This document shows, one piece after another, positions 42,677 through 64,000 of a stretch of 64,000 nt of DNA. The position numbers were made by a program, and so were the translations under genes. Origin of the DNA: an uncultured Candidatus Saccharibacteria bacterium. GTDB taxonomy: Bacteria; Patescibacteriota; Minisyncoccia; UBA6257; 2-01-FULL-56-20. How positions within the stretch are numbered: the stretch's first letter is position 1; each line of letters opens with the position of its first letter. The stretch spans positions 2,684 to 66,683 of the forward strand of contig CAYIOP010000002.1 in NCBI GenBank assembly GCA_964365185.1, read 5' to 3'. The notes under the pieces were generated by a model, which was given only the letters and a program-made list of their open reading frames with translations, made no database searches and was not told the origin of the DNA.

Positions 42677-43699
42677 ATGCCAAAAGCGATTATAACCGGC
42701 ATCACTGGTCAAGACGGCTCTTACTTAGCCGAGCTTTTACTCTCTAAGGGCTACGAGGTTCATGGTATTATTCGCCGGGCTTCTTCATTTAACACCGGGC
42801 GGATCGATCACATCTATCAAGACCCCCACGAAAAAAATCGCCGGCTCTTTCTTCACTATGGCGATCTTTCTGATGCCAACACAATTCGTCGCCTAATTTA
42901 TAAAGTGGAGCCAGATGAAATCTATAACCTCGGTGCTCAATCTCATGTTCGGGTCAGCTTCGATGTTGCTGAATACACAGTCAATATTGTTGGCGTTGGC
43001 ACACTCCGATTGCTTGAAGCTATTAAAGATTATGAAGAACACGCCGGCAAAAAGGTAAAATTTTATCAGGCCTCATCTTCCGAAATGTTTGGCTCGACCC
43101 CTCCTCCTCAAAATGAAACTACTCCGTTTTATCCGCGAAGCCCGTATGCTTGCGCCAAGGTCTTCGCCTATCACACTACCCGTAATTATCGCGAAGCTCA
43201 TAGCATTTTTGCAGTTAACGGTATTCTCTTTAATCACGAATCAGAACGCCGAGGAGAGACATTTGTAACTAGAAAAATTACCCGTGGTATCGCGAGAATT
43301 TTGGCCGGACTCGACAAAAAACTTTATCTTGGAAATCTTGATGCGCGTCGCGACTGGGGCTACGCTCCTGAATATGTCGAAGCTATGTGGCTGATGCTTC
43401 AACAGCCGACCCCAGAAGATTACGTGATCGGTACTGGCGAAAGTCATAGCGTCAAAGAATTTGCTGAGACCTCTTTTAATTTAGCGGGTCTAAATTGGCA
43501 AGACTACATCGAAATTGATCCTAAATACTACCGTCCGACCGAAGTTGAAAATTTAGTAGCTGATACCACTAAAGCCAAAACCAAACTTGGTTGGGAAGTT
43601 AAAACACATTTTGATAACTTGGTTAAAATAATGTTAAGGCATGATCTTTTGTATCACGGCCTCAAAGAGGCTGCCGATAAAATTAATCTTGAGAGCTAG
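42677..43699 (+). CDS. gmd: GDP-mannose 4,6-dehydratase
   Basis: [37 protein letters not shown]...HYGDLSD; YACAKVFAY. Confidence 0.9.
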
Positions 43700-43742
43700 A
43701 AGAGCTTACAGCTTTTCTGTCGAGTAAAAAATCAATCCGGAA

Positions 43743-43879
43743 TAGCGCTGTTCGGAAATCATATTATACTTAATTTTTTTCTACCGGTTCTCGGAGAGAT
43801 TTTCTGATTTAGACCCTTTGGCTAGGAGGAAAATTTCTTCAAGAACCTACGGTTATTGGGACTTTTCGAACAGCACTAT
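43743..43879. repeat. conserved hairpin element copy B (loop gatttagaccctttggctaggagg) nested in the outer inverted repeat gctgttcggaaa / tttcgaacagc
   Basis: Shares the loop TTGGCTAGGA(G/A)GAAAAT and surrounding sequence with 34640-34740. Confidence 0.4.
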
Positions 43880-43960
43880 CCAGAATTGACAAATAATTTT
43901 AATTATTTATAATAGATTTAGTTGTAAATTTTGTAATTTTAAACATAGAGAGGTGTAGCG

Positions 43961-44749
43961 TTGGAAAAAGAGAAATGCGTTATTGCGACTCAAACTCTCT
44001 ACCGGTCACCCGGTGAAGCTCGAGCCGAACTAGCGATTCAAATGTTTAGGGCTGCCAGCGAACACGGTTTTCATGTGGTTTGCTCTGATGGTGGATCTTA
44101 TGAAGATTTTCGAGACGACACCCGAGATTTAGGAGTTGAATTGTTGGATGAATCAGAATCAGGAATGGGTCCAGGACGACGCCAGGCCATTAAGCGCGCT
44201 ATGGAAGTTGTTGGTCCGGGCGGCGCAGTTTGTTTCATTGAACCAGAAAAAGGGCCTTTAGTGAAACATTTGAATTCTTGCTTTGAACTAATTTCAAAAG
44301 GAGCTGATATCGTTGTGCCTCGTCGATCGCGCCAAAGCTGGAAAACATACCCACGTTTACAACGGCTTAGCGAACCCTTCGGTAATTATTCGTTGGAAAT
44401 GGCAGTTGGTCGGAAAGATCTCGACATTTTCTTTGGGGCGCGGGTGTTTAATGTTCAGGCCGGGGGACTTTTCCTAGAGCGGCGGCCGGATATTCCTGGA
44501 GAAAATTCCTGGGGTACGACTCTCTATCCTGTCATCGATGCTATCCACCGCGGTTTGAAAGTAGTCAGCGTAATCGTAGATTACCTTCACCCCCCCGAGC
44601 AAGCCGCGACCGAAAACAATCTATCTTTCTATACAAGACGACTGGCTCAAATCACTGAGCTTGCAACTGGCACTTTTATTTATGCGATGAAACTTGGTCT
44701 CATTCAAAAAGAATCGGTTTTGATTGATCATTGCCAAAAATCAGTTTGA
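43961..44749 (+). CDS. hypothetical protein (GC-rich; glycan locus)
   Basis: 262 aa; noticeably higher GC than its flanks; no motif recognised. Confidence 0.4.
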   Translation: MEKEKCVIATQTLYRSPGEARAELAIQMFRAASEHGFHVVCSDGGSYEDFRDDTRDLGVELLDESESGMGPGRRQAIKRAMEVVGPGGAVCFIEPEKGPLVKHLNSCFELISKGADIVVPRRSRQSWKTYPRLQRLSEPFGNYSLEMAVGRKDLDIFFGARVFNVQAGGLFLERRPDIPGENSWGTTLYPVIDAIHRGLKVVSVIVDYLHPPEQAATENNLSFYTRRLAQITELATGTFIYAMKLGLIQKESVLIDHCQKSV

Positions 44750-44855
44750 TTCTTCAATCAATGCCCAAACTAATGGACGGACGCCTAAGGAGTTCGTCCA
44801 TTTTTATTCTTGCTTAGGTTAGATGATGATGGTAATCTGAAAACACCTAAAAATT

Positions 44856-45791
44856 ATGGATCTAAAGAAAAAAAAGATTTTAATTACTGGCGCTCACGGT
44901 TTTTTAGGCGGCTTTGTAATTCAAAAACTGCTTGAATTAGGAGTGCCTGACACTAATCTTTATACCCCGACTTTTAAAAAATATGATTTGCGCGAGTGGG
45001 GAAATTGTGAGAGGGTTGTAAAAAATCAGGATCTTGTTATTCATCTCGCGGCTAAAGTCGGCGGGATTGGGTTTAATAAAGAGAACGGCGCCGAACTTTT
45101 TTACGACAACATCATGATGGGCGTTCAGATGATTGAGGCGGCGCGGCTCTCTGGCGCAGAAAAATTTGTGGCTCTTGGTACAGTTTGCGCCTATCCTAAA
45201 TTCACCCCCGTGCCATTTAAAGAAGAAAATCTTTGGAATGGTTACCCAGAAGAGACCAATGCGCCTTACGGAATCGCGAAGAAATCACTACTGGTTCAAC
45301 TTCAATCCTATCGCGATCAATACGGCTTTAACGGTATATTTTTGCTGCCGATAAATTTGTACGGGCCCGGCGATACTTTTGATCCATCCCGTTCTCATGT
45401 TGTGCCCGCTCTTATCAAAAAAGTTTGTGATGCCAAGAAAGAGGGCCACGATCACATTGAGCTTTGGGGAACTGGGAAGGCGACCAGAGGATTTCTATAT
45501 GTTGAGGATGCGGCCGAGGGGATTGTGCTTGCGGCTCAAAAATATGATAAACCCGATCCAGTGAATCTCGGATCATCCCTTGAAATATCAATTAAAGATT
45601 TAGCCGAAATGATCTGCCGCTTAGCAGATTTTAAAGGGGAGATTCGTTGGGATCATTCAAAACCCGATGGCCAGCCAAGGCGATGCCTTGACGTGTCCCG
45701 CGCCGAGAAAGAATTTGGCTTCAAGGCCAATACATCTTTTGAGGATGGTTTGAAGAGGACTATTGATTGGTATGAAAAACATAATGTCTGA
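44856..45791 (+). CDS. fcl: GDP-L-fucose synthase (GDP-4-keto-6-deoxymannose 3,5-epimerase/4-reductase)
   Basis: [12 protein letters not shown] Rossmann; [23 protein letters not shown] matches the canonical NLYGPHDNF...SHV(I/V)PAL. Confidence 0.85.
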
Positions 45792-45841
45792 AGAGTTTGT
45801 AAATATCATAACCACCAGATAAACTCTTAACTTATAATGTA

Positions 45842-46807
45842 ATGCATAAAAATTCTAAACTGACCCTTTCTCTATACCGGAAATTGCTGCTTGTTAGACT
45901 GGCGGAGGAAAAAATCAGAGAGGAGTATCCTTATGATGCCATTAAAACTCCAGTTCACTTGGCCAACGGCAGTGAGGCCATTTCAGTTGGTGTTTCGAGC
46001 GTCTTGCCGCCCGACTCCAAAGTTTTTGGAACTTACCGTAATCACGGTCTTTATCTGTCTTTGACTGACGACACCGACAGTTTTTTTGCGGAGCTATACG
46101 GTAAAGCCGTGGGTTGTGCCAAGGGCAAGGCGGGTTCAATGCATCTTTCTTATCCCGAAAAGGATTTTATAGCAACTTCAGCAATAGTTGGAACCACTAT
46201 CCCGCTTGCCGTGGGAGCCGCCTTAGCAAACAACTATCGTAACTCGAATGATATTGCGGTCGCTTTTTTTGGTGACGGTGCCCTCGAGGAGGGCGTTTTC
46301 TGGGAAAGTCTAAACTTCGCCTGTCTTAAAAAACTCAAAACACTTTTTGTTTGCGAAGATAACGGCTTGGCGATTCACGCACAGGCTCGCGAGCGTCGCG
46401 GGTTTAAATCAATACCTGATGCTATTCGCGGTTTTGATTGTCACGTAGCGAGCGGCGATGGAACAGATCTAAGTTCCGTCAGCGAGCTAACTCAAAGCGC
46501 GTTGAAGTTAATAGCCGAGGATCCTAAGCCGGCATTTCTTCATCTTGCATATTTCCGATTTCTGGAGCATGTGGGTGTAGAAGAGGATTTCTCGGCCGGT
46601 TATCGCGCGAGGCCCTCGGAAGAAGAAATAAAACGATTAGATCCGATCATCCGTTACGAAAGATATCTTCTTGATTCAGGCATAGGCCAGACGGAGCTTG
46701 AGAATATTAAGTCAGAACTTATAAAAAAGATTGATAAGAGTGTCGAGGCCGCTAAGGCGGCGCCCCTTCCATCAAAGGACGAACTATTGACTGACGTTTT
46801 TGTATAA
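45842..46807 (+). CDS. thiamine-diphosphate-dependent dehydrogenase E1 component, alpha subunit
   Basis: E1 alpha TPP-binding region (GTYRNHG..., GDGALEEG). Confidence 0.7.
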   Translation: MHKNSKLTLSLYRKLLLVRLAEEKIREEYPYDAIKTPVHLANGSEAISVGVSSVLPPDSKVFGTYRNHGLYLSLTDDTDSFFAELYGKAVGCAKGKAGSMHLSYPEKDFIATSAIVGTTIPLAVGAALANNYRNSNDIAVAFFGDGALEEGVFWESLNFACLKKLKTLFVCEDNGLAIHAQARERRGFKSIPDAIRGFDCHVASGDGTDLSSVSELTQSALKLIAEDPKPAFLHLAYFRFLEHVGVEEDFSAGYRARPSEEEIKRLDPIIRYERYLLDSGIGQTELENIKSELIKKIDKSVEAAKAAPLPSKDELLTDVFV

Positions 46808-47843
46808 AATGATTTTAACTTTTAGAAACGCCTTAAATTTTGCTATGAAGAAAGAAATGGAATCAGATCGAGATGTTTTTGTGTTTGGATTGGATGTGCC
46901 CGATCATAAACGAATTTTTGGAAGTACAGCGGGACTGGTAGAACAATTCGGTCCGGAGAGGTGTTTCGGAACGCCTTTATCAGAAGAAGCTATGACAGGT
47001 GTGGCTTTGGGGGCTGCCATATCTGGCCTTAGGCCCATACATGTTCATATCAGAGCGGATTTTATGTTTTTAGCAGCTAATCAGATTGTTAATATGGTGT
47101 CAAATATTCGTTATATGAGTGGCGGGAAATTAAAGGTACCCTTAGTCATAAGAGCTGTTATTGGCAGGGGATGGGGTCAGTCGGCGCAGCATAGCAAATC
47201 GCCACACAGCACTTTCGCTCATTTTCCGGGCCTCAAGGTTATTTTACCAACGAATCCGCAGGACGCTTACAGCCTTTTGAGGGCATCGATACGTGACGAC
47301 AATCCAGTTATTTTTTTGGAACATCGCTGGCTTTATGATATAGAGGGCGAGGTTGATGACAGCTTGAATATTTCTTTAGGGAAGGCGGCGGTAAGACGGA
47401 AGGGAGACAAGGTAACAATTATCGCCATCTCTTGGATGAATGTTGAGGCGATGGAGGCGGCCCAAATTTTAGCGAAGCAGGGTGTAGAAGTTGAAGTCAT
47501 TGATATACGATCAATCTCGCCATTAGACGAAGAAACAATTATCGAGTCCGTCAAAAAAACCGGCCGCTGTGTTGTAGTCGATCACGACTGGCGATTCTTG
47601 GGCGCAAGCGCGGAGATAGCCGCCATTATTCAAGAGAAATGCTTTGGACTTTTGAAAAATCCGGTCGCGCGAATCGGTTTTCCTGAGTCGCCTTGCCCCA
47701 CCACGCGACCCCTCGAGGACGCTTTTTACCCGTCGGCAATAAATATTATTAGGATCGTCGAGAAGATGCTTGAACTTCCCGAATCGGATTTGAATAATGA
47801 GAGATTTTACAATTACGAAAATAAATTTAAAGGACCTTTCTGA
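46800..47843 (+). CDS. TPP-dependent dehydrogenase E1 component, beta subunit (transketolase-like C-terminal)
   Basis: Typical E1 beta/transketolase pyrimidine-binding fold (FGTPLSEEAMTGVALGAA...); overlaps the alpha gene by 8 nt. Confidence 0.7.
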   Translation: MYKMILTFRNALNFAMKKEMESDRDVFVFGLDVPDHKRIFGSTAGLVEQFGPERCFGTPLSEEAMTGVALGAAISGLRPIHVHIRADFMFLAANQIVNMVSNIRYMSGGKLKVPLVIRAVIGRGWGQSAQHSKSPHSTFAHFPGLKVILPTNPQDAYSLLRASIRDDNPVIFLEHRWLYDIEGEVDDSLNISLGKAAVRRKGDKVTIIAISWMNVEAMEAAQILAKQGVEVEVIDIRSISPLDEETIIESVKKTGRCVVVDHDWRFLGASAEIAAIIQEKCFGLLKNPVARIGFPESPCPTTRPLEDAFYPSAINIIRIVEKMLELPESDLNNERFYNYENKFKGPF

Positions 47844-47854
47844 TATATATATCA

Positions 47855-48913
47855 ATGCCCAGAAATTCTTTCATTGATGACATTATTCAAGATGATTGCT
47901 TGGATATTTTAGAGAGAATCGATTTGCGACCATTTAGGAATAAAAAAGTACTTTTAACCGGGGCCAATGGTTTGCTAGGTTCTTATCTCACAACTCTTAT
48001 TTTTATAGCCAATCAAAAAAAGAATTTGAACTGTCAGCTAACCTGCGTAAGTCTTCATGGGCCTAATAAAATCGTGAAGAACCTACTTAGAGATAAAAAA
48101 ATAAAATTCTCCAAAATCGATTTGGCAAAAGATTTTGATTTGGGACAGTCAAAATTCAACTTTATATTCCACGCCGCTGGTTATGGTCAACCGGCTAAAT
48201 TTGTAAAGGATCCTTTCTCAACCATAAACATTAATGTTCACGCGACTTCGAAACTTTTGGAAGTTACGAAACGTTCGAGAGGACGGTTTATATTTTTTAG
48301 TTCAGCCGAAATTTATGGTAATATCCCTAAAGAATTGGGGGCGGTTAAAGAGGAGTTCGAGGGGAGTATTTCTATCTCGAATCCCCGGAGCGTCTACGGC
48401 GAGTCGAAGAGGATGGGCGAGGTTTTAACTCTCGCTTTTAGGAGAGAGTATGGAGTTGATGCTAAAATTGTGAGAATTTCTCATGTTTACGGTCCAGGCG
48501 GCTCCACTAACGATAGCAGAGTTTTGTTTGAATTTATAAAAAAAGGATTAACTAAAGACAAGATTGCTTTACTTGATAGGGGCGAGGCGGTGAAAACCTA
48601 TGGTTATATCTCGGACGTTATAAGTATGATTGTGTACGTTGCTCTAAATAGTAAAGATACGGTGTATAACATAGGTGGGCGTGATTCTTTGAGCATTCTT
48701 GAATTGGCAAGGGTGATCGGTAATGTATGTCAAGTGCCGGTTTTAGTTCCTAAAAGGTCAGTGCGTCTAGCGTATATCAGCAAAGACTCAAGATATGTCA
48801 AACTCGATCTAACGAGGATTCTGAAAGAAATGAAAAGATTTAAATTCACGTCATTCGAGAAAGGACTTGCAAGAACAATCGATTGGTTTCGTTTCATAAG
48901 TAAGATGCAGTAA
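47855..48913 (+). CDS. NAD-dependent epimerase/dehydratase (SDR family)
   Basis: KKVLLTGANGLLGSYL glycine-rich motif; YxxxK context. Confidence 0.7.
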   Translation: MPRNSFIDDIIQDDCLDILERIDLRPFRNKKVLLTGANGLLGSYLTTLIFIANQKKNLNCQLTCVSLHGPNKIVKNLLRDKKIKFSKIDLAKDFDLGQSKFNFIFHAAGYGQPAKFVKDPFSTININVHATSKLLEVTKRSRGRFIFFSSAEIYGNIPKELGAVKEEFEGSISISNPRSVYGESKRMGEVLTLAFRREYGVDAKIVRISHVYGPGGSTNDSRVLFEFIKKGLTKDKIALLDRGEAVKTYGYISDVISMIVYVALNSKDTVYNIGGRDSLSILELARVIGNVCQVPVLVPKRSVRLAYISKDSRYVKLDLTRILKEMKRFKFTSFEKGLARTIDWFRFISKMQ

Positions 48914-48934
48914 ATAAATTAACCAACACCATTA

Positions 48935-50098
48935 ATGTTTTGGAAATTACAAGAAAACGTTTTTGAGAAAAGCGACATAAACTTGTTGGTTGATTTTATT
49001 AAGTCAACTGGTCGCTTCACGCAGTTTAAAAAGGTGAGAGAATTTGAGGAGGCCTGGTCTAATTGGCAGGGGACAAAGTACAGCGTTTTTGTTAATTCCG
49101 GCAGTTCAGCTAATTTAGTCATTGTGAGCGTTTTAAAGCAGATCTATGGCTGGAAAGATGGCGATGAAATAATCGTCCCGGCAGTAACTTGGCCAACTAA
49201 TATTAACCCAGCCATTCAACTTGGATTAAAACCGGTCTTTGTTGATATTAATCTAAGCGACCTCTCATTTGATTACGAGGACTTAGTTTCAAAGATAACT
49301 TCGAAAACCCGAGCTATTTTTGTAACCCATCTCATAGGTTTTCCAGCCGATATTAGAAGGATCGAAAAAATTATTGTTGGCAGGGATATTAAAATATTCG
49401 AGGATTGTTGCGAATCGCATGGGGCAAGAATAGGAGAAACTAAAGTTGGAAATTTAGGTTTGGTGAGTTCCTTTAGTTTTTATTGGGGTCATCACATCAC
49501 TACAGTTGAAGGAGGAGTTATTTGCACGAACGACAAAGATATTTATAAAAATGCCATTCTTAAGAGATCGCATGGCCTCGCCCGTGAGTTGCCGATAGAG
49601 TATCATGCGGATTACGCCGCGGCGCACAAGGATATAGATTTTAATTTCTTATTTCTGACAGACGGTTTTAATTTCCGAAACACAGAATTCAACGCGGTTT
49701 TAGGACTTTCTCAAATTAAAAAACTAGATTCTTACATAAAAATTAGAAACGATAATTATCAAAAATTCTTAGAAATCCTCAAGCCCTACCAAAACCATCT
49801 CCACCTCCCTTATAAAGATGGTTTATCATCTTTCTCGTTGCCGTTTTTATTTAAAGACGCTGATAAGCGTAAAAAATTTCAATCAATTCTCCGCGAGAGC
49901 GAAATAGAATCTCGTCCGGTAATCAGCGGCAACCTCCTGCGCCAGCCGTTTCTTTCTTCTTATGGTGACCCTAAAGATTTTGAGAACGCTGAATTCATTC
50001 ACAATAATGGTTTCTATATCGGCAACAACCAGTTCGTGAATGATGAGCGACTCGGCCGACTCGCTGAGCTTGTAGAAGATTTTTTTAAGACCAGGTAG
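48935..50098 (+). CDS. DegT/DnrJ/EryC1/StrS-family PLP enzyme, RfbH/DdhC-like (sugar dehydrase/aminotransferase)
   Basis: FVNSGSSANLVIV...; fold-type I AAT-like; 387 aa. Confidence 0.7.
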   Translation: MFWKLQENVFEKSDINLLVDFIKSTGRFTQFKKVREFEEAWSNWQGTKYSVFVNSGSSANLVIVSVLKQIYGWKDGDEIIVPAVTWPTNINPAIQLGLKPVFVDINLSDLSFDYEDLVSKITSKTRAIFVTHLIGFPADIRRIEKIIVGRDIKIFEDCCESHGARIGETKVGNLGLVSSFSFYWGHHITTVEGGVICTNDKDIYKNAILKRSHGLARELPIEYHADYAAAHKDIDFNFLFLTDGFNFRNTEFNAVLGLSQIKKLDSYIKIRNDNYQKFLEILKPYQNHLHLPYKDGLSSFSLPFLFKDADKRKKFQSILRESEIESRPVISGNLLRQPFLSSYGDPKDFENAEFIHNNGFYIGNNQFVNDERLGRLAELVEDFFKTR

Positions 50099-55692: not shown

Positions 55693-55734
55693 GACTAAAT
55701 TTAGAGTTAAAGATATTCTGATTGAGTAATTTAC

Positions 55735-56596: not shown

Positions 56597-57537
56597 ACTC
56601 CAAACCTAAAAAAACTATTCTTGTAACCGGCGCCTTAGGCCATATCGGCTCCAAGCTCATTCGTGAATTTTCTCCGGAGATTGTGGGCAAGGTGATTATC
56701 GTCGATAATCTTTTGACCCAGCGCTACGCTTCGCTTTTTAATCTTCCCGCATCAATTCAATACGAATTTCACGAAGACGATATTCACACCGCCGATTTTT
56801 CAAAATATCTAAAAAGCGTAGATGCGGTGATTCACTTGGCCGCCATCACCGACGCTCCGGCTTCAGTAGATAATTCCAAAGAAACCTTCGATGTGAATCT
56901 CGGCGGCACCAAGCGATTGGCTGACGCTTGTCTTGTCGCAAACGTACCTATGTTTTTTCCGTCAACCACCAGCGTCTATGGGTCCCAAGAAAATTTTGTG
57001 GGCGAAACCTGCGAAGAACTTAAACCCCAAAGCCCGTACGCTGAATCCAAACTTCAGGCCGAAGAATATCTTCGCGGCTTGAAATCCCAAGGACTTAAAT
57101 TTATCATCTGTCGCCTCGGCACAATCTTTGGTTATTCAGTTGGAATGCGATTTCACACCGCGGTCAATAAATTCACTTGGCAAGCGGTTCATGGTATTCC
57201 TCTTACTGTCTGGAAAACAGCTTGGCAGCAAAAACGTCCTTATCTTGATCTTGCCGATTGCGTTAAAGCCATTAATCTCATTTTGGAGCGCGATATTTTT
57301 GACGGAGAAACTTATAATATCCTTACCAATAATTTTACGGTTGAAGATATTGTAACAACTATTAAAAAATTTATTCCTAATCTTGAAATTAGTTATGTTG
57401 ATTCAGCGATTATGAACCAGCTTTCTTATGAAGTTAGCGATGCGAAGTTTAAATCCTTAGGATTCGTATTGACCGGCAATTTGGAAAAAGGGATTAAAGA
57501 AACAATAGATAGTTTGAATGGCCTCTTCTCAACTTAA
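56593..57537 (+). CDS. NAD-dependent epimerase/dehydratase (SDR)
   Basis: ILVTGALGHIGSKL; YAESKLQAE (YxxxK). Confidence 0.75.
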   Translation: MNSKPKKTILVTGALGHIGSKLIREFSPEIVGKVIIVDNLLTQRYASLFNLPASIQYEFHEDDIHTADFSKYLKSVDAVIHLAAITDAPASVDNSKETFDVNLGGTKRLADACLVANVPMFFPSTTSVYGSQENFVGETCEELKPQSPYAESKLQAEEYLRGLKSQGLKFIICRLGTIFGYSVGMRFHTAVNKFTWQAVHGIPLTVWKTAWQQKRPYLDLADCVKAINLILERDIFDGETYNILTNNFTVEDIVTTIKKFIPNLEISYVDSAIMNQLSYEVSDAKFKSLGFVLTGNLEKGIKETIDSLNGLFST

Positions 57538-57552
57538 AGCAGAGCTTCTCGA

Positions 57553-58251
57553 ATGAAAATAATTTTCTTGAATCTATGGGGCGCTAAGATTAAAAAAAAC
57601 CTCGCCGAATTTTTAAAGTCCCAATCCCATAATACCGATATTTTTTGCCTCCAAGAGGTTTATGGTGAAGCGAAGTCGCTTTTAATAGATTGCTTATCCG
57701 ATTTTAAAGAAGTGTCGGCAACTAAACCGATGGCTTTTGGTAATAATTTTTTCGCCCAAGCGACATACATAAAAGAGAATATACCAATTATAAGTTCAGA
57801 TACTTTATTGGAAAATGAAAATGAATCTGGACTCGGTCTTTCTGTGTATATTAGTTTTAAAGGAAAAGATCTACATATTTGCAACTTCCACGGCTTAACC
57901 TTTGCCGAAGACGACGACAAATTGGACACTTCAACTCGGCTCTTTCAGTCAGAATTAATAATTAAAAATTTTGAAAAGAAATCGGGTCTTAAAATCATTG
58001 GCGGTGACTTCAACATCCTACCTCAAGCCGAAAGTATAAAGATGTTCGAAAAGAAGGGTTACACCGATCTCATCAAAAAGTATCACATAACTACAACCAG
58101 AAGCCGCATTGCCTTAAAAAAATATCCCGGTCACGAAGAATATTTTTCCGATTATGTTTTTATAAGTCCTGATGTAAAACTTAAAAAGTTTTCCGTCCCC
58201 AGCCTAGAAATTTCCGATCACCTACCCCTGATTCTTGAAATCGACGTTTAG
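57553..58251 (+). CDS. endonuclease/exonuclease/phosphatase (EEP) family protein
   Basis: IFCLQEV N-terminal motif; C-terminal SDHLPLILE. Confidence 0.55.
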   Translation: MKIIFLNLWGAKIKKNLAEFLKSQSHNTDIFCLQEVYGEAKSLLIDCLSDFKEVSATKPMAFGNNFFAQATYIKENIPIISSDTLLENENESGLGLSVYISFKGKDLHICNFHGLTFAEDDDKLDTSTRLFQSELIIKNFEKKSGLKIIGGDFNILPQAESIKMFEKKGYTDLIKKYHITTTRSRIALKKYPGHEEYFSDYVFISPDVKLKKFSVPSLEISDHLPLILEIDV

Positions 58252-58283
58252 AAGAGAGGAACAAACGTACGTAGGTTATAAAT

Positions 58284-58311
58284 TTGACATTTTTTAGGGT
58301 TTGTGTATAAT
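58284..58311 (+). promoter_or_regulatory. near-consensus sigma70 promoter (TTGACA-N16-TATAAT)
   Basis: TTGACA at 58284-58289, TATAAT at 58306-58311, ~58 nt upstream of the 58369 start. Confidence 0.4.
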
Positions 58312-58368
58312 GGTGGCAGAAGCTTGAATTCCCGTTTTCCTAATCCATAAAAGAAAGGATGGCACTCT

Positions 58369-59103
58369 TTGGTTATTAAAAAACTTCCCTTCCCGCGTCT
58401 CGCCGAATTAGTGAGAAAGAGGTACGAGCAGAATCCGGACGCGAAGAGACACGGTTCTTTTGAAGAGCACGATCTTCTTGTTGGTAGCTTTGCTTCTATC
58501 ATCGCTCCCAATCCAAGAACAGGACGTCTTGGAATTGCTGCCGGATATTGTCACAGTATCGATCACCTCGTAGGAGGGCGTCTCGACAATTTTGATGTCG
58601 AAAACCCAGCGAATCTCCGTAAGACGGCCACCACTCCCGAAGAAGTGGAGCGTTACTTGCGTGAACTCCTCGCAGCTTCAAAGGAACTCTCCGAGGAAGA
58701 CCAAGAAGAAGTGGTGCAGGCGGTTCTTCATCACGAAGGAAACAATGAGCAGATCGACTTACTCCCGCATCACCTCTTGGCACAGACTTTAGTCGAAGCC
58801 GATCGCCTTGCCAACATGATCACCACGATTCCAATGCGGGGCGCAAGGTTTAGTTTGCACTTGCCCTTAGTCGACCCTCTTCATTTTGAGAATGATCCCG
58901 CTGCGAATTATCGCAATCCTAAATCTGTTCTCTGGGACGTAGCCAACTGCGCCAGTTGGGGAGATCGCGGGGGGCCCTATATACTCCGGCTTCCCAAAGC
59001 TCGAGAGCTAGGAGCCAAGTACGCAGCCCACCTCCGGCAGATAATCGCATGGATTCGCGAAGACTACATGGATACGAGAATCGTTTCTGAAAACTCGAAT
59101 TAA
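58369..59103 (+). CDS. hypothetical protein (GC-rich; possible HD-type metal-dependent hydrolase)
   Basis: CHSIDH ... HHEG ... EADRL spacing loosely resembles HD-domain metal ligands. Confidence 0.35.
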   Translation: MVIKKLPFPRLAELVRKRYEQNPDAKRHGSFEEHDLLVGSFASIIAPNPRTGRLGIAAGYCHSIDHLVGGRLDNFDVENPANLRKTATTPEEVERYLRELLAASKELSEEDQEEVVQAVLHHEGNNEQIDLLPHHLLAQTLVEADRLANMITTIPMRGARFSLHLPLVDPLHFENDPAANYRNPKSVLWDVANCASWGDRGGPYILRLPKARELGAKYAAHLRQIIAWIREDYMDTRIVSENSN

Positions 59104-59130
59104 TTTATTCGTTTTTCGTAGTCATGAACA

Positions 59131-59167
59131 AAAAGCGGCCTAGGAATAATCCCAGGCCGCTTTTCAT
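59131..59167. terminator. hairpin terminator (aaaagcggcctagg-aataat-cccaggccgctttt)
   Basis: GC stem flanked by an A-run and a T-run (bidirectional-type). Confidence 0.5.
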
Positions 59168-60397
59168 TTGAAATTAGTCCCCTCGAATGTTAGAATGAAG
59201 CCCATGAAAATCAAACTTAGTCCTATTATTGACTTCGGAAAAATGCCGATTGCCAACGCCTTTTTAACTGAAGATCAGTTTAAAGACGAGTATTTCTATA
59301 ATATGGTTTTGGGTTATGACCCCGAAACGCACGCTATCGGACTCGTAAACACCGTTCCGCCTAAGATGATGTTTCACGACCACTACGCTTTTTTCTCCGG
59401 AACTTCCAAGGCCATGCAAAAACACTTTCGAAATACGGCGGAAAAACTTCTGCCTCTGGCGGGAAAAGGTATGGTCGTTGAGGTTGGTTCAAATGATGGC
59501 ATCATGCTTGAGGCCTGGAAAGAATTTGGAGTCAAAGCCATCGGTGTTGAGCCATCCAGGAATGTGGCCGAGGTCTCCAAATCGCGCGGCCACGATGTTA
59601 TCATTAAATTTTTAACTCCCGAAGTTGTTGACGAAATTTTATCCCAAGGAAAAGTATCACTGGTCTATAGCGCCAACACCTCTTGCCACATCGAAGGGTT
59701 CGTCGAATATCTTGCAGGTATCACTAAATTAATTGGTCAGGGCGGCATTTTTGTTTTTGAAGACCCTTATTTTTTGGATATTATTGAGAAAACATCTTAC
59801 GACCAGATTTACGATGAACATGTCTGGTATTTTACTATTTCGTTTATAAATCAAATACTTAAGCCCTACGGTTTCCATGTTTTCGATTGTGAACACATCG
59901 AAGTGCACGGCGGCGAGCTCCGAATGTATGTTGGTCATAAAGACACTCATCCCGCAAAACCAATTGTTGCTGAGTGGCTCAAAAAAGAAGTTGATCTTCC
60001 AACCAAACTCGAAGTTTTAAAAGCCAATGTCCAAAAGTCAAAAGTTATGCTTCTTGAAATACTGAATCAGTTAAAAAAAGAAGGCAGGCGTTTAGCTGGA
60101 TTTGGCGCAACTTCTAAAGCCACCACCATTTTCAATTATTGCGGCATTGGGCCAGACCTTATACCTTTTGTGACCGACACCACTCCGTTGAAGCAAGGTA
60201 AATACTATCCCGGCGTTCACATTCCGGTTGTTCCTCAGGGGGTTTTTGAGGCCGGCAAGACCGACTCGTCAAAATTTATTGATTATGTTTTTTTAGGCGC
60301 CTGGAACCATTTTAAAGAAATTGATGAGTATCAATCATGGTTTAGGGTTGCGGGCGGGCATTGGATAACCCATGTGCCTCTGCCGAAAATTATTTAA
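59168..60397 (+). CDS. SAM-dependent C-methyltransferase-like protein (NDP-hexose C-methyltransferase family architecture)
   Basis: VVEVGSNDGIMLEAWKEFG (motif I), DVIIKFLTPE... and a long C-terminal domain, as in TylCIII/NovU-type enzymes. The start may be 59204. Confidence 0.55.
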   Translation: MKLVPSNVRMKPMKIKLSPIIDFGKMPIANAFLTEDQFKDEYFYNMVLGYDPETHAIGLVNTVPPKMMFHDHYAFFSGTSKAMQKHFRNTAEKLLPLAGKGMVVEVGSNDGIMLEAWKEFGVKAIGVEPSRNVAEVSKSRGHDVIIKFLTPEVVDEILSQGKVSLVYSANTSCHIEGFVEYLAGITKLIGQGGIFVFEDPYFLDIIEKTSYDQIYDEHVWYFTISFINQILKPYGFHVFDCEHIEVHGGELRMYVGHKDTHPAKPIVAEWLKKEVDLPTKLEVLKANVQKSKVMLLEILNQLKKEGRRLAGFGATSKATTIFNYCGIGPDLIPFVTDTTPLKQGKYYPGVHIPVVPQGVFEAGKTDSSKFIDYVFLGAWNHFKEIDEYQSWFRVAGGHWITHVPLPKII

Positions 60398-60517
60398 AAC
60401 GTAGCAGTTGCTACTCATAAATAATTTAGTATTTTTCATTAGGATTCCTTGAGGGGAAAAAATAGACATCGTTCCATCAATAAAGTATTATTGAAAAAAC
60501 AAAAATAATCAAAGAAC

Positions 60518-61330
60518 ATGGAGTGCGAGAAATGCAATTTTAAAAACCCAACCGCGACTGCGACGGCAGTAGTTATTAAAAATGGAGAAATTCTTCTCTT
60601 AAAAAGAAATGAAGATCCTCATAAAGGAGAATGGGATTTTATCGGAGGATTTCTAAATGAAGAAGAAACTCCTCTTATGGCTCTAAAACGAGAGATTAGA
60701 GAAGAACTAAGCGTGACAGAGTTCAACGTTGACTATATAAAATCATTCCCAGGCACGCATCTTTGGAAAGACAAAACCTACCCCATCCTTTCCCACGCTT
60801 TCTTAGTAAGCCTAGGGAGCGATCTCAAACTTAACGAGGAAAACAGCGAGTATAATTTTGTTCCACTCAAGGAAGTTGAGTCCGTCTGTTTTGATTCAAA
60901 TATGAAGATACTTCAGTATGTAAAGGAAAATTTTCTGTTTGACTTGCCGAGAGTCGAAGAGCTTATGCGGCAGCTTGATCCCCAGATGAAATTAAATGAG
61001 CAATATATTTACAAAGCCATTTTAGATGGCTTTGTTTCGAAAAAGTACGACGGCAATAAGTTGATCGGTTTGGGATGGATATTCCCTCGGCAAACTATGG
61101 TTCGAAGGCAGGCGGTCGTGGAAGATATGATTGTTGATAACGCCTACCGAGGGAAAGGTTTTGGCAGAGAAATTCTAAAAGATTTACTCCGGTGGGCCAA
61201 AGAAAACGATATGGATATGGTTGAGCTTACAACCAATCCTGCGCGAGTAGCTGCTAACGAACTTTATAAATCAGAGGGCTTTTGGTTGCACCCAACAAAT
61301 CATTATTTATACAACGTTAAGAAAAATTAA
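60518..61330 (+). CDS. NUDIX hydrolase - GNAT acetyltransferase fusion protein
   Basis: NUDIX box GGFLNEEETPLMALKREIREELS; C-terminal GNAT motif A RGKGFGREILKDLLRWAKEN. Confidence 0.6.
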   Translation: MECEKCNFKNPTATATAVVIKNGEILLLKRNEDPHKGEWDFIGGFLNEEETPLMALKREIREELSVTEFNVDYIKSFPGTHLWKDKTYPILSHAFLVSLGSDLKLNEENSEYNFVPLKEVESVCFDSNMKILQYVKENFLFDLPRVEELMRQLDPQMKLNEQYIYKAILDGFVSKKYDGNKLIGLGWIFPRQTMVRRQAVVEDMIVDNAYRGKGFGREILKDLLRWAKENDMDMVELTTNPARVAANELYKSEGFWLHPTNHYLYNVKKN

Positions 61331-62034
61331 TGCGGAGCATTACTAAAAATCCTAACCGGATAAACATAATACCGCCCCGTATAATTATCTGGGGAGGCAC
61401 CGGACAGGCGAAAGTTATTCGGCCCATTATTGAACATTACGGATCAAAAGTTGTTGCTGTTATTGATGATACTCCTGGCCTGCCGTCGCCCTTTCCTGAT
61501 GTAGAAATTTGGCGCGGGTATGAAGGATTTAAGCAATGGGCGGCGCAAGAGAAAAGCCGCAGTGAAATCGGTTTTTGTATTGCTATTGGTAATCCCCATG
61601 GACGCGCGCGTCTGCGGTTACACGACTTACTTATCAAAGAGGGTTTGTCGGCGATAAGCATTGCTCATCCCAGTGCTATTATTGCCGAGAACGCAATTAT
61701 CGGCGAAGGAGCGCAAATTCTTGCTGGTGCGATTATCCAACCAGAGGCAAAGATAGGAAAGGAATGTATTATAAATACCGGGGCAAGCGTGGACCATGAG
61801 GATATTCTCGAGGATGGAGTAGAGATAGCTCCTGGAGCAGTACTTGCTGGTTTAGTCCGCGTCGAAACATGTGCCTGGGTTGCCTCTGGAGCTATTATAC
61901 TCCCGCGCCTTACAATTGGCGCCGACTCAATTGTTGGTGCCGGAGCGGTTGTGATTGAAAACGTTCCACCTCGAACAGTCGTAGTTGGTATTCCAGCGCG
62001 CAAATTAAAATCAATAGACGATACGCGGAAATAA
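61330..62034 (+). CDS. NeuD/PglD-family hexapeptide-repeat sugar N-/O-acetyltransferase
   Basis: N-terminal Rossmann-like IIIWGGTGQAKVI; left-handed beta-helix repeats; C-terminal VVVGIPAR. Confidence 0.8.
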   Translation: MRSITKNPNRINIIPPRIIIWGGTGQAKVIRPIIEHYGSKVVAVIDDTPGLPSPFPDVEIWRGYEGFKQWAAQEKSRSEIGFCIAIGNPHGRARLRLHDLLIKEGLSAISIAHPSAIIAENAIIGEGAQILAGAIIQPEAKIGKECIINTGASVDHEDILEDGVEIAPGAVLAGLVRVETCAWVASGAIILPRLTIGADSIVGAGAVVIENVPPRTVVVGIPARKLKSIDDTRK

Positions 62035-62036
62035 AA

Positions 62037-63188
62037 ATGCCCAAAATAAACGCTAAAAAAATCAGTAAGATCCGTATGGCCGATCCCTGGATCACCCAGC
62101 ACGAAATTAACGTTGTAAACGAAGCCATGAAAACCGGCTGGAAAAGCTATCAATATGTGGAAAAATTTCAGCCCGCCTTCGCCCGCTATCACGGGCGGAA
62201 ATTTGGCATCATGACTCCTAATTGCACCAGTGCGTTGCACTTATTGCTTTTGTCTTTAGGCATCAAAAAAGGCGACGAAGTTATTTTGCCGGAATGTACT
62301 TGGACCGGCAGTTCGGCGCCGGTTACTTACGTCCAAGCCACTCCGATTCTTTGCGATATTGAGGAAAAAAATTGGTGTTTGGATCCTAAGTCCGTTGAGA
62401 AAAGAATCACTAAACGAACTAAAGCCATTATTGCCGTGGGTCTTTACGGCAATATGCCTAATATGGACGTCTTAACTAAAATCGCCAGAAAACATAAATT
62501 ATTTTTTATTGAAGATGCCGCTGAATCGCTCGGCTCAACCTATAAAGGCCAGAAATCCGGTTCTTTTGGCATCGCCTCTGTCTTTAGTTTTCATCGCACC
62601 AAAACTTTAACTACCGGCGAAGGCGGTATGTTGCTTTTAGACAATAAAAAAATCTATGATCGCGCTATGTTTCTGCGGGACCACGGCCGACACGCCACGA
62701 TTCCTTACTGGACCGTCGAGGCCGCGCCTAAATACATGCCTTTTAATATTCAAGCCGCTATCGGCTACGCTCAATTTCAAAGATTAGATGAATTAATTGC
62801 GCGTAAGCGGGAAATATTTTTTATGTATCGGAAACTTTTCGCCGATACTCCTGATGTTGAATTGAATGAAGAATCGAAAATTGTGAAAAACGGCGCTTGG
62901 GCGACTTCCTTAATTATCGGTCGTTCCTACTGCATGCCTAAACAGTTTATGATTGATGAATTAAAAAAGCGCGGCCTACCCGCCCGGCCATTTTTCTACC
63001 CACTCTCTTACTTGCCCGGCTATGCTCATTATAAAACTGGCAGTCGAAAATTAAATCCGGTTGCCTACGATGTTTCTTCTCGCGGCATCACTCTGCCCGC
63101 TTCTTTTGATTTAAATAAAGCTCAAATTGAATTTTATGTTCAAGCTGTTAAAGATATTCTTAAATCTCGCTCCAAGCAAAAAAAATGA
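62037..63188 (+). CDS. DegT/DnrJ/EryC1/StrS-family sugar aminotransferase
   Basis: PLP fold-type I; SFHRTKTLTTGEGG (Lys-containing active-site loop). Confidence 0.8.
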   Translation: MPKINAKKISKIRMADPWITQHEINVVNEAMKTGWKSYQYVEKFQPAFARYHGRKFGIMTPNCTSALHLLLLSLGIKKGDEVILPECTWTGSSAPVTYVQATPILCDIEEKNWCLDPKSVEKRITKRTKAIIAVGLYGNMPNMDVLTKIARKHKLFFIEDAAESLGSTYKGQKSGSFGIASVFSFHRTKTLTTGEGGMLLLDNKKIYDRAMFLRDHGRHATIPYWTVEAAPKYMPFNIQAAIGYAQFQRLDELIARKREIFFMYRKLFADTPDVELNEESKIVKNGAWATSLIIGRSYCMPKQFMIDELKKRGLPARPFFYPLSYLPGYAHYKTGSRKLNPVAYDVSSRGITLPASFDLNKAQIEFYVQAVKDILKSRSKQKK

Positions 63189-64000
63189 AGGTAAAATTCG
63201 TCGACCTATCCGAGCCCACTCAAGCTGTTAAAAAAGAATTTTTGAAACGCCTTGGCGCATTTCTGGATAAAGCCAATTTTATTCTCACGGATGAGGTCGC
63301 CGAGTTTGAAAAAGAGTGGGCCGTATATATAGGTACTGATTATGCGGTCGGCGTTTCAAATGGCGCCGACGCGCTTTGGCTCGCGTTGAAATCTTTGGGC
63401 ATTCAAGAAGGGGATGAGGTCATCACTCAAGGCAATGCTTATAACGCCTCCGCAACCGCTATTCTCCGCGCCGGAGCTGTTCCTCGTTACGCCGACATCA
63501 ATCCCAAAACTCTTCTTATCGACCCGTCTAAAATAGAACCCCTCATCAATTCTAAAACTAAAGCGATCATGTCCGTTCATCTCTATGGTCAGGCCTCAGA
63601 TATGAGCGCTATTTTGGCAATCGCTAAAAAGCATCAGCTTTTCGTTATCGAGGACTGCGCTCAAGCGCACGGCGCTACCTGGCAAGGCAAAAAAGTCGGG
63701 GCTTGGGGAGATGTCGCGGCCTGGAGTTTTTATCCCACTAAAAACCTCGGAGCTTTTGGCGATGCCGGCGCCATCACAACCTCAAACGCGCGGGTCAAAG
63801 AAGAAGTTCGAATCTTGCGCAATCTTGGCCAGACCTCAAAAAACAATCACACGCATTTGGGCTACAATATGCGTCTTGATCCCATCCAAGCCATCGCGCT
63901 TTCCCTTAAACTTTCTTATCTAGATGAAGCCATTAGAAAACGGCAGCTAGCCGCCTCTCTTTATAACGAACTTTTCGATCAAGCTAAACTTCCAGTTGAA
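63185..64000 (+). CDS. second DegT/DnrJ/EryC1/StrS-family sugar aminotransferase (partial; runs off the window end)
   Basis: ATG at 63185 overlaps the upstream stop. Translation: MKVKFVDLSEP...AWSFYPTKNLGAFGDAGAITT. Confidence 0.75.
   Translation, partial: MKVKFVDLSEPTQAVKKEFLKRLGAFLDKANFILTDEVAEFEKEWAVYIGTDYAVGVSNGADALWLALKSLGIQEGDEVITQGNAYNASATAILRAGAVPRYADINPKTLLIDPSKIEPLINSKTKAIMSVHLYGQASDMSAILAIAKKHQLFVIEDCAQAHGATWQGKKVGAWGDVAAWSFYPTKNLGAFGDAGAITTSNARVKEEVRILRNLGQTSKNNHTHLGYNMRLDPIQAIALSLKLSYLDEAIRKRQLAASLYNELFDQAKLPVE

Follow-up and report, generated by a model that had tools for sequence, protein, structure and literature searches.

Gene content and boundaries of the cluster

The stretch of DNA analysed here (64,000 nucleotides of contig CAYIOP010000002.1, hereafter the window) contains a genuine surface-glycan and nucleotide-sugar gene cluster, which spans about 40.5–70.1 kb, is at least 30 kb long and continues past the window end (positions beyond 64000 are given in extended coordinates). 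Genes were assigned by hidden Markov model (HMM) searches with Pfam and NCBIfam and by sequence searches of the PDB. The scans covered 63 open reading frames (ORFs) of the window, taken from lists of 80 and 100 aa and comprising every long ORF without a longer overlapping one. A first-pass annotation of the letters had described a large locus for glycans and nucleotide sugars in an organism with a reduced genome, and the gene content bears this out for a member of the Patescibacteria. HMM and PDB matches confirmed, at the positions given for them, gmd, the Fcl-like gene, the E1alpha/E1beta pair, the RfbH/ColD-family gene, GT10, GT2, the S-adenosylmethionine (SAM) methyltransferase, the RmlC-like cupin, FdtA, the C-methyltransferase, the NeuD/PglD-type acetyltransferase and two DegT aminotransferases (Table 1). 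The O-antigen-ligase-like protein is real, a member of the Wzy_C family, but its gene lies upstream of the range in which it had been placed. Missing from the first description were two short-chain dehydrogenases/reductases (SDRs; 47855 and 56593), the PAPS_reduct-, sulfatase- and endonuclease/exonuclease/phosphatase (EEP)-family proteins, the HD-like protein, the NUDIX-GNAT fusion, the GT-A-fold orphan and the SemiSWEET-like protein.

The housekeeping gene for RNase Y (38909-40435) is located directly upstream of the first Wzy_C gene, and two Wzy_C proteins bracket the cluster at its ends. Almost every long ORF between 40527 and the window end is on the plus strand, and gaps measure at most 133 bp, apart from 261 bp before 43961 and 618 bp at 50979-51598. 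The latter, the only large gap, holds two small minus-strand genes (51000-51493), a 66-aa ORF and the gene of a 98-aa PQ-loop/SemiSWEET-like protein, and this SemiSWEET-like gene divides the cluster into two transcription blocks. Three near-perfect intergenic sigma70-like sites suggest internal promoters. Two match the consensus in 12 of 12 positions (TTGACA-16-TATAAT; 43886-43913 before the GT-A-fold orphan and 58284-58311 before the HD-like ORF) and one in 11 of 12 (50141-50168, upstream of the PP-loop gene). Overall, promoter-like sites (52 versus 42±7 after shuffling) and terminators (19 versus 21±5) did not exceed expectation.

No dTDP-glucose synthase or 4,6-dehydratase had been recognised in the window, and indeed neither RmlA nor RmlB is encoded by any of the 63 ORFs. 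Contig L167, which is 100% identical to window positions 54006-64000, extends 6.3 kb further and carries an RmlA-like gene and an equivalog-level RmlB 1.3–3.0 kb past the window end. The proposed search outside the window was thus positive, and the puzzle of the absent RmlA/RmlB is gone, because the genes sit just past the end; the "missing" pathway entry enzyme was merely cut off by the window edge. On L167 the second Wzy_C gene is followed by two methyltransferase genes. A second contig, L166, is 99.985% identical to the window across 13.5 kb. In the relative L082 the arrangement DegT1-DegT2 ... RmlA/RmlB is kept (RmlA 77%, RmlB 72% identity). In kind, the cluster is large but ordinary; it has an unremarkable composition and a dual entry, into GDP- and dTDP-sugars. 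Its pathway logic departs from that of the first-pass annotation, and the predicted route to a branched dideoxy sugar is what stands out most.

Table 1 Genes of the cluster, in order of position. GA, Pfam gathering threshold; PMP, pyridoxamine phosphate; ThDP, thiamine diphosphate; NDP, nucleoside diphosphate; LbH, left-handed beta-helix; ext., extended coordinates.
Product	Position	Strand	Evidence
Wzy_C-family membrane protein (O-antigen ligase, polymerase or O-oligosaccharyltransferase type)	40527-41930	+	PF04932 67 bits, GA 31.7; weak TIGR03097
209-aa protein, N-terminal hydrophobic segment	41914-42543	+	no Pfam match
Gmd (gmd)	42677-43699	+	TIGR01472 536 bits, above 415 cutoff; 54.5% identity with E. 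coli Gmd
GT-A-fold orphan, 262 aa, candidate glycosyltransferase	43961-44749	+	no Pfam match; predicted structure
GMER/Fcl-type GDP-4-keto-6-deoxyhexose epimerase/reductase	44856-45791	+	NF047922 273 bits, below 500 cutoff
ThDP-dependent E1 alpha subunit (alphaKADH2 type)	45842-46807	+	PF00676 165 bits; GDG...N ThDP motif
E1 beta subunit (Transket_pyr + Transketolase_C)	46800-47843	+	NF006667 329 bits
Extended SDR, 352 aa (SDR352)	47855-48913	+	PF01370 141 bits; no equivalog reached
ColD-type PMP-dependent NDP-4-keto-6-deoxyhexose 3-dehydratase	48935-50098	+	PDB matches, His position, Cys count
PP-loop ATP-pyrophosphatase, PAPS_reduct family	50176-50979	+	PF01507 138 bits; below all NCBIfam cutoffs
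Small PQ-loop/SemiSWEET-like membrane protein	51197-51493	-	PF04193 in precomputed annotation; NF037968 26 bits, below 80 cutoff
Soluble sulfatase-family (alkaline-phosphatase superfamily) protein	51598-52971	+	PF00884 131 bits
GT10-family (fucosyltransferase-like) glycosyltransferase	52946-53995	+	PF00852 60.4 bits, GA 23.9
GT2-family glycosyltransferase	54030-54884	+	PF00535 105 bits
Class I SAM methyltransferase, probable sugar O-/N-methyltransferase	54970-55641	+	PF08241
RmlC-like cupin, NDP-4-keto-sugar 3,5- or 5-epimerase	55735-56190	+	PF00908 70.6 bits; TIGR01221 56 bits, below cutoff
FdtA-type NDP-4-keto-6-deoxyhexose 3,4-ketoisomerase	56180-56596	+	PF05523 150 bits; PDB FdtA 2pa7 1.3e-37
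Extended SDR, 314 aa (SDR314), probable NDP-sugar ketoreductase	56593-57537	+	HMM and conserved cassette position
EEP-family protein	57553-58251	+	PF03372 40 bits
244-aa HD-like protein	58369-59103	+	PF01966 E=0.0014, weak
NDP-hexose C3-methyltransferase, KijD1/TcaB9/TylCIII type	59168-60397	+	PF08484 129 bits
NUDIX hydrolase fused to GNAT acetyltransferase	60518-61330	+	PF00293 + PF00583; canonical Nudix box
NeuD/PglB/VioB-family LbH sugar N-acetyltransferase	61330-62034	+	TIGR03570 192 bits, above 160.8 cutoff
DegT1, perosamine-synthase-like (C4-type) aminotransferase	62037-63188	+	PDB 7b0m 5e-71; perosamine synthetase 3bn1 2e-68
DegT2, C3-type (QdtB/DesV/WbpE) aminotransferase	63185-64000, cut by window end	+	PDB 7b0d 5e-78
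DegT2, remainder	to 64294 (ext.)	+	full gene on L167, 369 aa
EamA transporter	64308-65237 (ext.)		L167
RmlA-like nucleotidyltransferase, 249 aa (short form)	65252-66001 (ext.)	-	TIGR01207 257 bits, below 360.65 cutoff
RmlB, dTDP-glucose 4,6-dehydratase	66008-67033 (ext.)	-	TIGR01181 376 bits, above 365.1 cutoff
Second Wzy_C protein	67206-68459 (ext.)	-	L167

A stand-alone E1 pair among predicted GDP-sugar genes

The genes at 42677-50098 (module A) begin with gmd, which together with fcl had been read as a route to GDP-L-fucose. Gmd was confirmed at the equivalog level, but the fcl step is tentative: the protein scores below the equivalog cutoff and is 34.5% identical to E. coli Fcl, while cassette-linked homologs in the metagenomic loci L170 and L172 are 44-46% identical to it. 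Its PDB match is GDP-fucose synthase 8du0 (4e-63), and in the alignment it keeps the residues corresponding to S107 (here T), C109, Y136, K140 and H179 of E. coli Fcl, which we take to comprise the SDR triad and the Cys109/His179 acid/base pair for epimerisation in the E. coli GMER. Because Fcl-like genes elsewhere sit in a cassette with ColD- and E1alpha/beta-type genes, as described below, the "fcl" gene possibly does not encode a dedicated fucose synthase; from its sequence, the product could be Fcl, a ColC-like enzyme or the epimerase of a branched-sugar cassette.

The dehydrase at 48935-50098 had been labelled RfbH-like and turned out to be of the ColD type instead. Its PDB match to ColD (2gms, 1.2e-68) is far better than that to the CDP-linked E1 dehydratase (3bcx, 4.5e-40), and its GHH motif aligns with H188 of ColD, the position mutated in 3b8x and 2r0t. 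Since the protein contains only three cysteines (158, 159 and 197), it cannot hold the four-Cys iron-sulfur motif of E1/SpnQ. ColD-type enzymes are recognised by a catalytic His that replaces the pyridoxal phosphate-binding Lys of aminotransferases and by the lack of a [2Fe-2S] cysteine motif (PMC8987622). An RfbH/E1 identity was also rejected by score (NF011936, 227 bits versus a cutoff of 423), and no gene for an E3-like reductase partner is present in the locus. The protein is therefore ColD-type by family; a GDP-linked substrate is suggested by its similarity to ColD and by the presence of Gmd in the same operon. SDR352, encoded just before it, is by its position a candidate ketoreductase for a branch or for C4.

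The genes for E1alpha and E1beta lie between the Fcl-like gene and the ColD-like gene, and no gap exceeds 50 bp (the ENA gene call has an alternative start of E1beta near 46856). Neither E2/lipoyl nor E3 partner genes were found among the scanned window ORFs, and the pair is therefore not part of a pyruvate dehydrogenase (PDH) complex. It has the structural features of the alphaKADH2 type, namely a split E1alpha and E1beta, no E2 or E3, and a location amid NDP-sugar genes. Stand-alone E1alpha/beta pairs of this type in antibiotic sugar clusters transfer a pyruvate-derived two-carbon unit to C3 or C4 of keto-sugars (PMC4802897, PMC12247030). By analogy, the pair encoded here would branch a sugar with a two-carbon unit from pyruvate, and the proposal of two-carbon extension made in the first-pass annotation was a reasonable reading.

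The gene neighbourhood of the pair recurs elsewhere. Among the best 120 hits, E1alpha/beta homologs are 58-65% identical, some of them named Omnitrophota, Nitrospiraceae or Deltaproteobacteria; E1alpha homologs in ColD-type cassettes are 62-64% identical, and E1beta is 67-72% identical to the E1beta proteins of L170 and L172. Five unrelated metagenomic loci (L170, L171, L172, L178 and L180), among them ones carrying each of these three names, were inspected, and the sugar-gene context of E1alpha/beta was kept in all five. In four, a DegT protein with the same Lys-to-His change is encoded immediately upstream of E1alpha; in the remaining locus this gene is 4.4 kb upstream, and the one next to E1alpha on that side encodes a Gmd homolog (64% identical to that of the window). 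An Fcl-like SDR directly follows E1beta in four of the five. This recurring set of His-type 3-dehydratase, E1alpha, E1beta and Fcl-like SDR suggests an uncharacterised route to a branched 3,6-dideoxyhexose. We tentatively propose that the cassette of Gmd, ColD-like enzyme, E1alpha/beta, Fcl-like enzyme and SDR may make, in GDP-linked form, a 3,6-dideoxyhexose with a C-acetyl or hydroxyethyl branch for cell-surface glycans, the branch being introduced by a PDH-E1-type (alphaKADH2) instead of a YerE-type enzyme, and that this route may be widespread in uncultivated bacteria (Omnitrophota, Nitrospiraceae, Deltaproteobacteria and the organism studied here). A literature search found no described combination of ColD with E1alpha/beta, which is not proof of its absence.

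Module A shares parts with three known systems. The GDP-L-colitose pathway of E. coli O55/O111, Yersinia and Vibrio O-antigens (Gmd, ColD, ColC) has the same Gmd, a His-type dehydratase without Fe-S cysteines and a GMER-type enzyme; here, an E1alpha/beta pair and an extra SDR are inserted between the ColC-like and ColD-like genes, ManB/ManC are not encoded nearby, and the host is a monoderm-like bacterium of the candidate phyla radiation (CPR) without lipopolysaccharide. Yersiniose A synthesis by YerE and YerF, with its relatives erwiniose and caryophyllose, follows the same sequence of 4,6-dehydratase, 3-dehydratase, ThDP-dependent branching and reductase, but YerE, the type in use for such branched cell-wall sugars, is an unrelated single-chain flavoenzyme of the decarboxylase superfamily that acts on a CDP-sugar from the Fe-S E1/E3 system (PMC9306805), whereas a split PDH-E1-type pair and GDP/ColD-type enzymes are encoded here. 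The known alphaKADH2 pairs (AviB1/B2, Plm8/Plm9, the aldgamycin enzymes and KbDH-alpha/beta) likewise consist of a stand-alone E1alpha and E1beta amid NDP-sugar tailoring genes; those act on dTDP-deoxysugars in actinomycete secondary metabolism, whereas this pair lies in a surface-glycan locus with Gmd and a ColD-type enzyme, and the likeness is one of architecture and context.

Plain colitose synthesis deserves attention as an alternative. Gmd, the ColD-type enzyme and a GMER-type protein acting as ColC are exactly the colitose enzyme set (PMC8987622), all GMER catalytic residues are kept, and a branch at C4 would remove the free 4-keto group on which a GMER-type 4-reductase depends. Module A would then make GDP-L-colitose, perhaps along with GDP-L-fucose, and E1alpha/beta would serve some other purpose, for instance acetoin or 2-oxoacid chemistry or the supply of an acyl donor. 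We regard this as unlikely, since E1alpha/beta are placed between the Fcl-like and the ColD-like gene without gaps above 50 bp, have the same neighbours (His-type DegT, Fcl-like SDR) in five of five unrelated loci and lack E2/E3, and since the sole documented role of stand-alone E1alpha/beta in sugar clusters is two-carbon branching (PMC4802897, PMC12247030).

The inspected loci, whose E1alpha proteins are 61-65% identical to that of the window, carry further genes beside the cassette. In L170, L171, L172 and L180 these encode a GHMP kinase and a B12-binding radical-SAM protein, L170 and L180 also have heptose-type genes (SIS/GmhA-like and transaldolase-like in L170, a HAD-nucleotidyltransferase fusion in L180), and L178 has a second E1alpha/beta pair and an HMGL-like aldolase instead. 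These neighbours suggest a family of elaborate branched or extended sugars.

Genes for predicted dTDP-linked sugars

Module B comprises the genes at 54970-60397, DegT2 (63185-64294) and the RmlA-like/RmlB pair. The first-pass annotation had assembled FdtA, the aminotransferases and the acetyltransferase into an FdtA/FdtB/FdtC route to a dTDP-3-acetamido-3,6-dideoxyhexose. Its first two steps stand. FdtA matches 2pa7 and keeps the HAHKK motif (RGQHAHKK, aligned to RGFHAHKK of 2pa7), which presumably includes the paired catalytic residues His49/His51, and DegT2 is a C3-type aminotransferase with QdtB (3frk, 1.3e-62), DesV (2oga) and WbpE among its PDB relatives; its best relatives in genome and metagenome contigs are 72% and 76% identical. 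The third step does not stand, since the nearest relatives of DegT1 and of the acetyltransferase are perosamine synthase and PerB, respectively.

The remaining enzymes point to methylated sugars. The best PDB matches of the C-methyltransferase are 5t64 ("Sugar 3-C-methyl transferase", 1.2e-89) and TcaB9 (3ndi, 7.7e-85), with the mycarose enzyme 4rv9 (1e-58) more distant. A gene of its kind is adjacent to that of a DegT2-type aminotransferase in five loci (L026, L052, L107, L112 and L129), accompanied by an RmlC-like gene in four of them (all except L129) and by an SDR314 homolog (50-58% identical) in all five; with L002 included, SDR314 homologs in these loci are 50-70% identical. The SAM methyltransferase has orthologs in the same cassette of L002 (67% identity) and L026 (57%). 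L002, a contig of a metagenome-assembled genome labelled Saccharibacteria, has ten genes in common with the cluster at 38-76% identity (sulfatase-like, GT2, methyltransferase, RmlC-like, FdtA, SDR314, HD-like, C-methyltransferase, DegT2 and GT10); module A is missing from it, as are the Per-like pair and the NUDIX-GNAT fusion. Its ORF 9288-10004 was considered as a NeuD homolog and rejected (28% identity, SDR-like N-terminal sequence).

The gene set resembles those for 3-amino-3-C-methyl sugars (EvaB-E, KijD1/KijD2 and TcaB8/TcaB9), in which the C-methyltransferase likewise stands beside an aminotransferase, an RmlC-like enzyme and SDRs (as in EvaC/EvaB/EvaD/EvaE), a likeness seen in several loci. 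The difference is that no EvaA-type 2,3-dehydratase is encoded and FdtA takes its place, so the substrate would keep its 2-OH. The dTDP-Fuc3NAc/Qui3NAc pathway of S-layer glycans and O-antigens shares the RmlA-like enzyme, RmlB, FdtA and a QdtB/DesV-like C3 aminotransferase; here, a QdtC/FdtC-type acetyltransferase is absent, the LbH enzyme being of the PerB/VioB/PglD type, and the C3-methyltransferase, RmlC-like epimerase, SDR and methyltransferase, none of which the Fuc3NAc route needs, are all present.

A predicted 4-acetamido module

Between the C-methyltransferase and DegT2 genes, module C (60518-63188) encodes the NUDIX-GNAT fusion, the LbH acetyltransferase and DegT1. The acetyltransferase matches PerB (4ea7, 2.6e-26), VioB (3.4e-24) and PglD (1.6e-22) in the PDB; assignment to the FdtC/QdtC type was rejected, as QdtC reached only 6.9e-13. 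For DegT1 the next PDB class after the perosamine-synthase-like enzymes follows at 1e-42. The NeuD-like/DegT1 gene pair is also adjacent in L112 (61% and 58% identity). Judged by these similarities, the product is most likely a 4-acetamido-4,6-dideoxyhexose, predicted to be GDP-N-acetylperosamine if fed by Gmd or, less likely, dTDP-Qui4NAc if fed by RmlB. In Caulobacter crescentus, GDP-N-acetylperosamine is made by Per and PerB, and the adjacent Per-like and PerB-like genes and a supply of substrate by Gmd are common to both systems; the differences are that here VioB scores close to PerB and that the NUDIX-GNAT fusion precedes the pair.

Glycosyltransferases and accessory proteins

The GT10 protein matches the Helicobacter pylori alpha1,3-fucosyltransferase 2nzw (2e-11, motif FSLCLENCIYPGFVSEK). 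As in the H. pylori alpha1,3/4-fucosyltransferases, it has the GT10 C-terminal domain with a largely kept nucleotide-binding motif (ENxxxxxFVSEK versus ENxxxxxYVTEK, with Y-to-F and T-to-S exchanges); the similarity is limited to ~95 residues and does not include the unrelated N-terminal acceptor domain, and some GDP-6-deoxy-L-hexose other than GDP-fucose could serve as donor. The ortholog in L002 is 58% identical. The orphan at 43961-44749 is a candidate glycosyltransferase on the strength of its modelled fold. Its family is rare (five homologs detected) and has conserved DGG, GMGPGRRQ, EPEK and ADIVVP motifs; the AlphaFold2 model of the orphan (pLDDT 87.4) gave Foldseek matches to GpgS, a glucosyl-3-phosphoglycerate synthase (3e26, 2.5e-9, TM 0.59), and to mannosylglycerate synthase. 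One groundwater contig, L162, agrees with the window over 18.6 kb except for one indel; its Wzy_C call is 436 aa long versus 467 aa in the window, which may be population-level frameshift variation.

Two proteins encoded mid-locus raise the question of whether the glycan is sulfated or phosphorylated, with the PAPS_reduct- and sulfatase-family proteins handling activated sulfate or remodelling sulfate esters. The latter has a 54% identical ortholog in L002, which also encodes an adenosine 5'-phosphosulfate (APS) kinase beside its GT10. We consider this very unlikely. The PAPS_reduct-family protein has an SGGGDS PP-loop motif and a single Cys at position 28; it lacks the C-terminal Cys and resembles a generic PP-loop ATPase, and an identity as 3'-phosphoadenosine 5'-phosphosulfate (PAPS)/APS reductase (CysH) was rejected, also on its score (PRK02090, 117 bits versus a cutoff of 154). 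The catalytic Cys of PAPS reductase is, we assume, that of the C-terminal ECGLH motif. The sulfatase-family protein has no C/S-x-P-x-R motif, its S-P-H-S-F aligning with S-T-P-A-R of 7oz8, and with all NCBIfam sulfatase models below cutoff it was rejected as a formylglycine sulfatase. No sulfotransferase, ATP sulfurylase or APS kinase gene was found in the window or its 6-kb extension. By their sequences, the two proteins are not to be named after their families. In L002 (11119-13421), the genes for a NUDIX protein, the GT10 ortholog and the APS kinase are direct neighbours on the opposite strand, and the gene for a pyruvate-kinase-barrel protein comes next. This hints at sulfate activation beside glycan genes in a relative. 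The HD-like protein, whose gene has the highest GC content of the locus (50.7%), has a 38% identical homolog in L002.

Among characterised proteins, those nearest to the C-methyltransferase and to sugar-branching E1alpha/beta pairs belong to antibiotic pathways, and one might ask if the sugars decorate a secondary metabolite, as in actinomycete antibiotics, and not a cell-surface polymer. This is barely credible here: neither the window nor the extension contains genes for polyketide synthases, non-ribosomal peptide synthetases or other aglycone enzymes, two Wzy_C proteins, GT2 and GT10 flank the sugar genes, and the host is a reduced-genome member of the Patescibacteria.

Base composition and variation in gene content

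The first-pass annotation had reported sharp alternation of GC content between 50-53% and 30-35% and concluded that the locus was assembled from different sources. The two blocks put at 50-53% compute to 42.1% and 44.0% and the one put at 30-35% to 38.2%, so that the earlier figures were off by 10-15 points. In 1-kb windows the GC content ranges from 33 to 48% inside the region versus 32-47% outside, with standard deviations of 0.034 and 0.031. The 24 genes of the locus did not differ from the other 31 genes of the window in GC (Mann-Whitney p = 0.22; Levene p = 0.087) or in GC at third codon positions (GC3; Mann-Whitney p = 0.83; Levene p = 0.30), and only two genes are outliers in GC, GT2 (33.1%) and the HD-like ORF. 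Assembly from different sources thus finds no support in composition. There is no tRNA gene in the 64-kb window, and the idea of a tRNA-flanked island was dropped; no integrase was found among the scanned window ORFs. A compositionally foreign, horizontally acquired island was rejected on these grounds (p = 0.22 and 0.83 for GC and GC3, no tRNA, no integrase seen). The cluster is nevertheless modular, as gene content differs among relatives, a line of evidence distinct from composition.

The annotation of the FdtA-like and GT10-like families, in contrast to the GC differences, which vanished on computation, was upheld by the HMM searches. The original model as a whole (GDP-L-fucose with GT10, a dTDP-3-acetamido-3,6-dideoxyhexose made by FdtA/FdtB/FdtC, a CDP-type RfbH/E1 route and GC-disparate donors) is quite unlikely. 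Gmd, the Fcl-type enzyme, GT10, FdtA and a C3-type aminotransferase are all present, RmlA/RmlB are encoded nearby, and gene content does vary in relatives, as shown by L002, in which the Per-like pair, the NUDIX-GNAT fusion and all of module A are absent. Its GC part, on the other hand, is refuted by blocks of 42, 44 and 38% and the lack of a significant inside/outside difference; the dehydratase is ColD-type, the acetyltransferase is PerB/VioB/PglD-type and paired with a Per-like aminotransferase, and the Fcl-like protein stays under the equivalog cutoff, with Fcl-like genes linked to E1alpha/beta in cassettes elsewhere.

A three-module model

We consider it likely that two nucleotide-sugar entry enzymes feed three modules of a surface-glycan locus, a GDP, a dTDP and a 4-acetamido module. 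In module A, Gmd, assigned by its equivalog score, would form GDP-4-keto-6-deoxymannose, from which the ColD-type PMP enzyme, whose family is given by similarity and whose substrate is presumed, would remove the 3-OH; the GMER/Fcl-type enzyme would epimerise and/or reduce, E1alpha/beta would add a pyruvate-derived two-carbon unit to the keto carbon, and SDR352 would then reduce. The predicted product is a GDP-linked 3,6-dideoxyhexose, probably C-branched, that resembles yersiniose or colitose. The Fcl-type enzyme may also supply GDP-L-fucose for GT10. In module B, dTDP-4-keto-6-deoxyglucose would be isomerised by FdtA and aminated at C3 by DegT2, and the C3-methyltransferase, the RmlC-like enzyme, SDR314 and the SAM methyltransferase would yield a C- and/or O-methylated 6-deoxy(amino)hexose. 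The Per-like C4 aminotransferase and the PerB-like acetyltransferase of module C would make a 4-acetamido-4,6-dideoxyhexose. GT10, GT2, the GT-A-fold orphan and the two Wzy_C proteins would assemble and attach the glycan, which the first-pass annotation had taken as possibly an S-layer or host-mimicking one. Substrates, products and nucleotide carriers in this scheme are all predictions from similarity and gene neighbourhood.

Several points weigh against the model. A ThDP-dependent addition at C4 leaves no 4-keto group for the GMER-type reductase, which bears on the order of steps and on the role of the Fcl-like enzyme. FdtA and C3 amination use up the 4-keto group needed by KijD1/TcaB9-type C3-methylation; the cassette may therefore yield two sugars, a 3-amino-3,6-dideoxyhexose and a 3-C-methyl-6-deoxyhexose, so that FdtA/DegT2 and the C-methyltransferase may belong to different ones. 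In module C, DegT1 matches 7b0m just as well, a "sugar aminotransferase" whose specificity is not stated, and the acetyltransferase scores of PerB and VioB are almost equal; with VioB nearly level with PerB, the carrier could be dTDP, as in a VioA/VioB-like pathway. Further, no ManB/ManC, Wzx flippase or initiating phosphoglycosyltransferase was found between 38 and 70 kb, and there are only three glycosyltransferase candidates for four or more predicted sugars.

The recurring pairing of a ColD-type dehydratase with E1alpha/beta predicts that known chemistries are combined in a new way and, if true, the branched-sugar route would carry alphaKADH2 branching beyond antibiotics to glycans of the cell surface. 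Groundwater Patescibacteria and their phages have already been reported to have nucleotide-sugar genes for surface glycans (PMC12911398). The organism sets aside 30 kb or more of its very small genome for about four rare sugars, and the cluster is a concrete starting point for studying what hosts and phages meet at the cell surface. To our knowledge, hardly anything is known of the surface chemistry of Patescibacteria, which live attached to other microbes.

Host and other features of the window

The host is a groundwater member of the Patescibacteria (CPR), with a DnaA sequence closest to Parcubacteria/Ca. Liptonbacteria: the DnaA encoded in the window is 76-87% identical to DnaAs named Ca. 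Liptonbacteria, Paceibacterota, Parcubacteria or Patescibacteria. A protein identical to E1alpha is found on ENA groundwater-metagenome contigs, whose names read "Hain_H43_01um". The CPR assignment agrees with type-IV-secretion-like genes elsewhere in the window, a minus-strand block (13268-26714) encoding T4SS_pilin, TraG P-loop ATPase and PrgI-family proteins together with three large ORFs (537-809 aa) without a Pfam match. Systems of this kind are typical of Patescibacteria.

The cumulative GC skew drops to ~38-39 kb and then flattens or rises, and gene orientation switches at this turning point (37093-38622 on the minus strand, 38909 onward on the plus strand), which is ~27 kb from dnaA-dnaN (dnaA 10123-11490, dnaN 8846-9961). 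The region 29888-31525 encodes a 545-aa protein with He_PIG (putative Ig) repeats that is likely a surface protein and a possible target of glycosylation, and a gene for a 23S rRNA intervening-sequence protein is located at 19487-19843.

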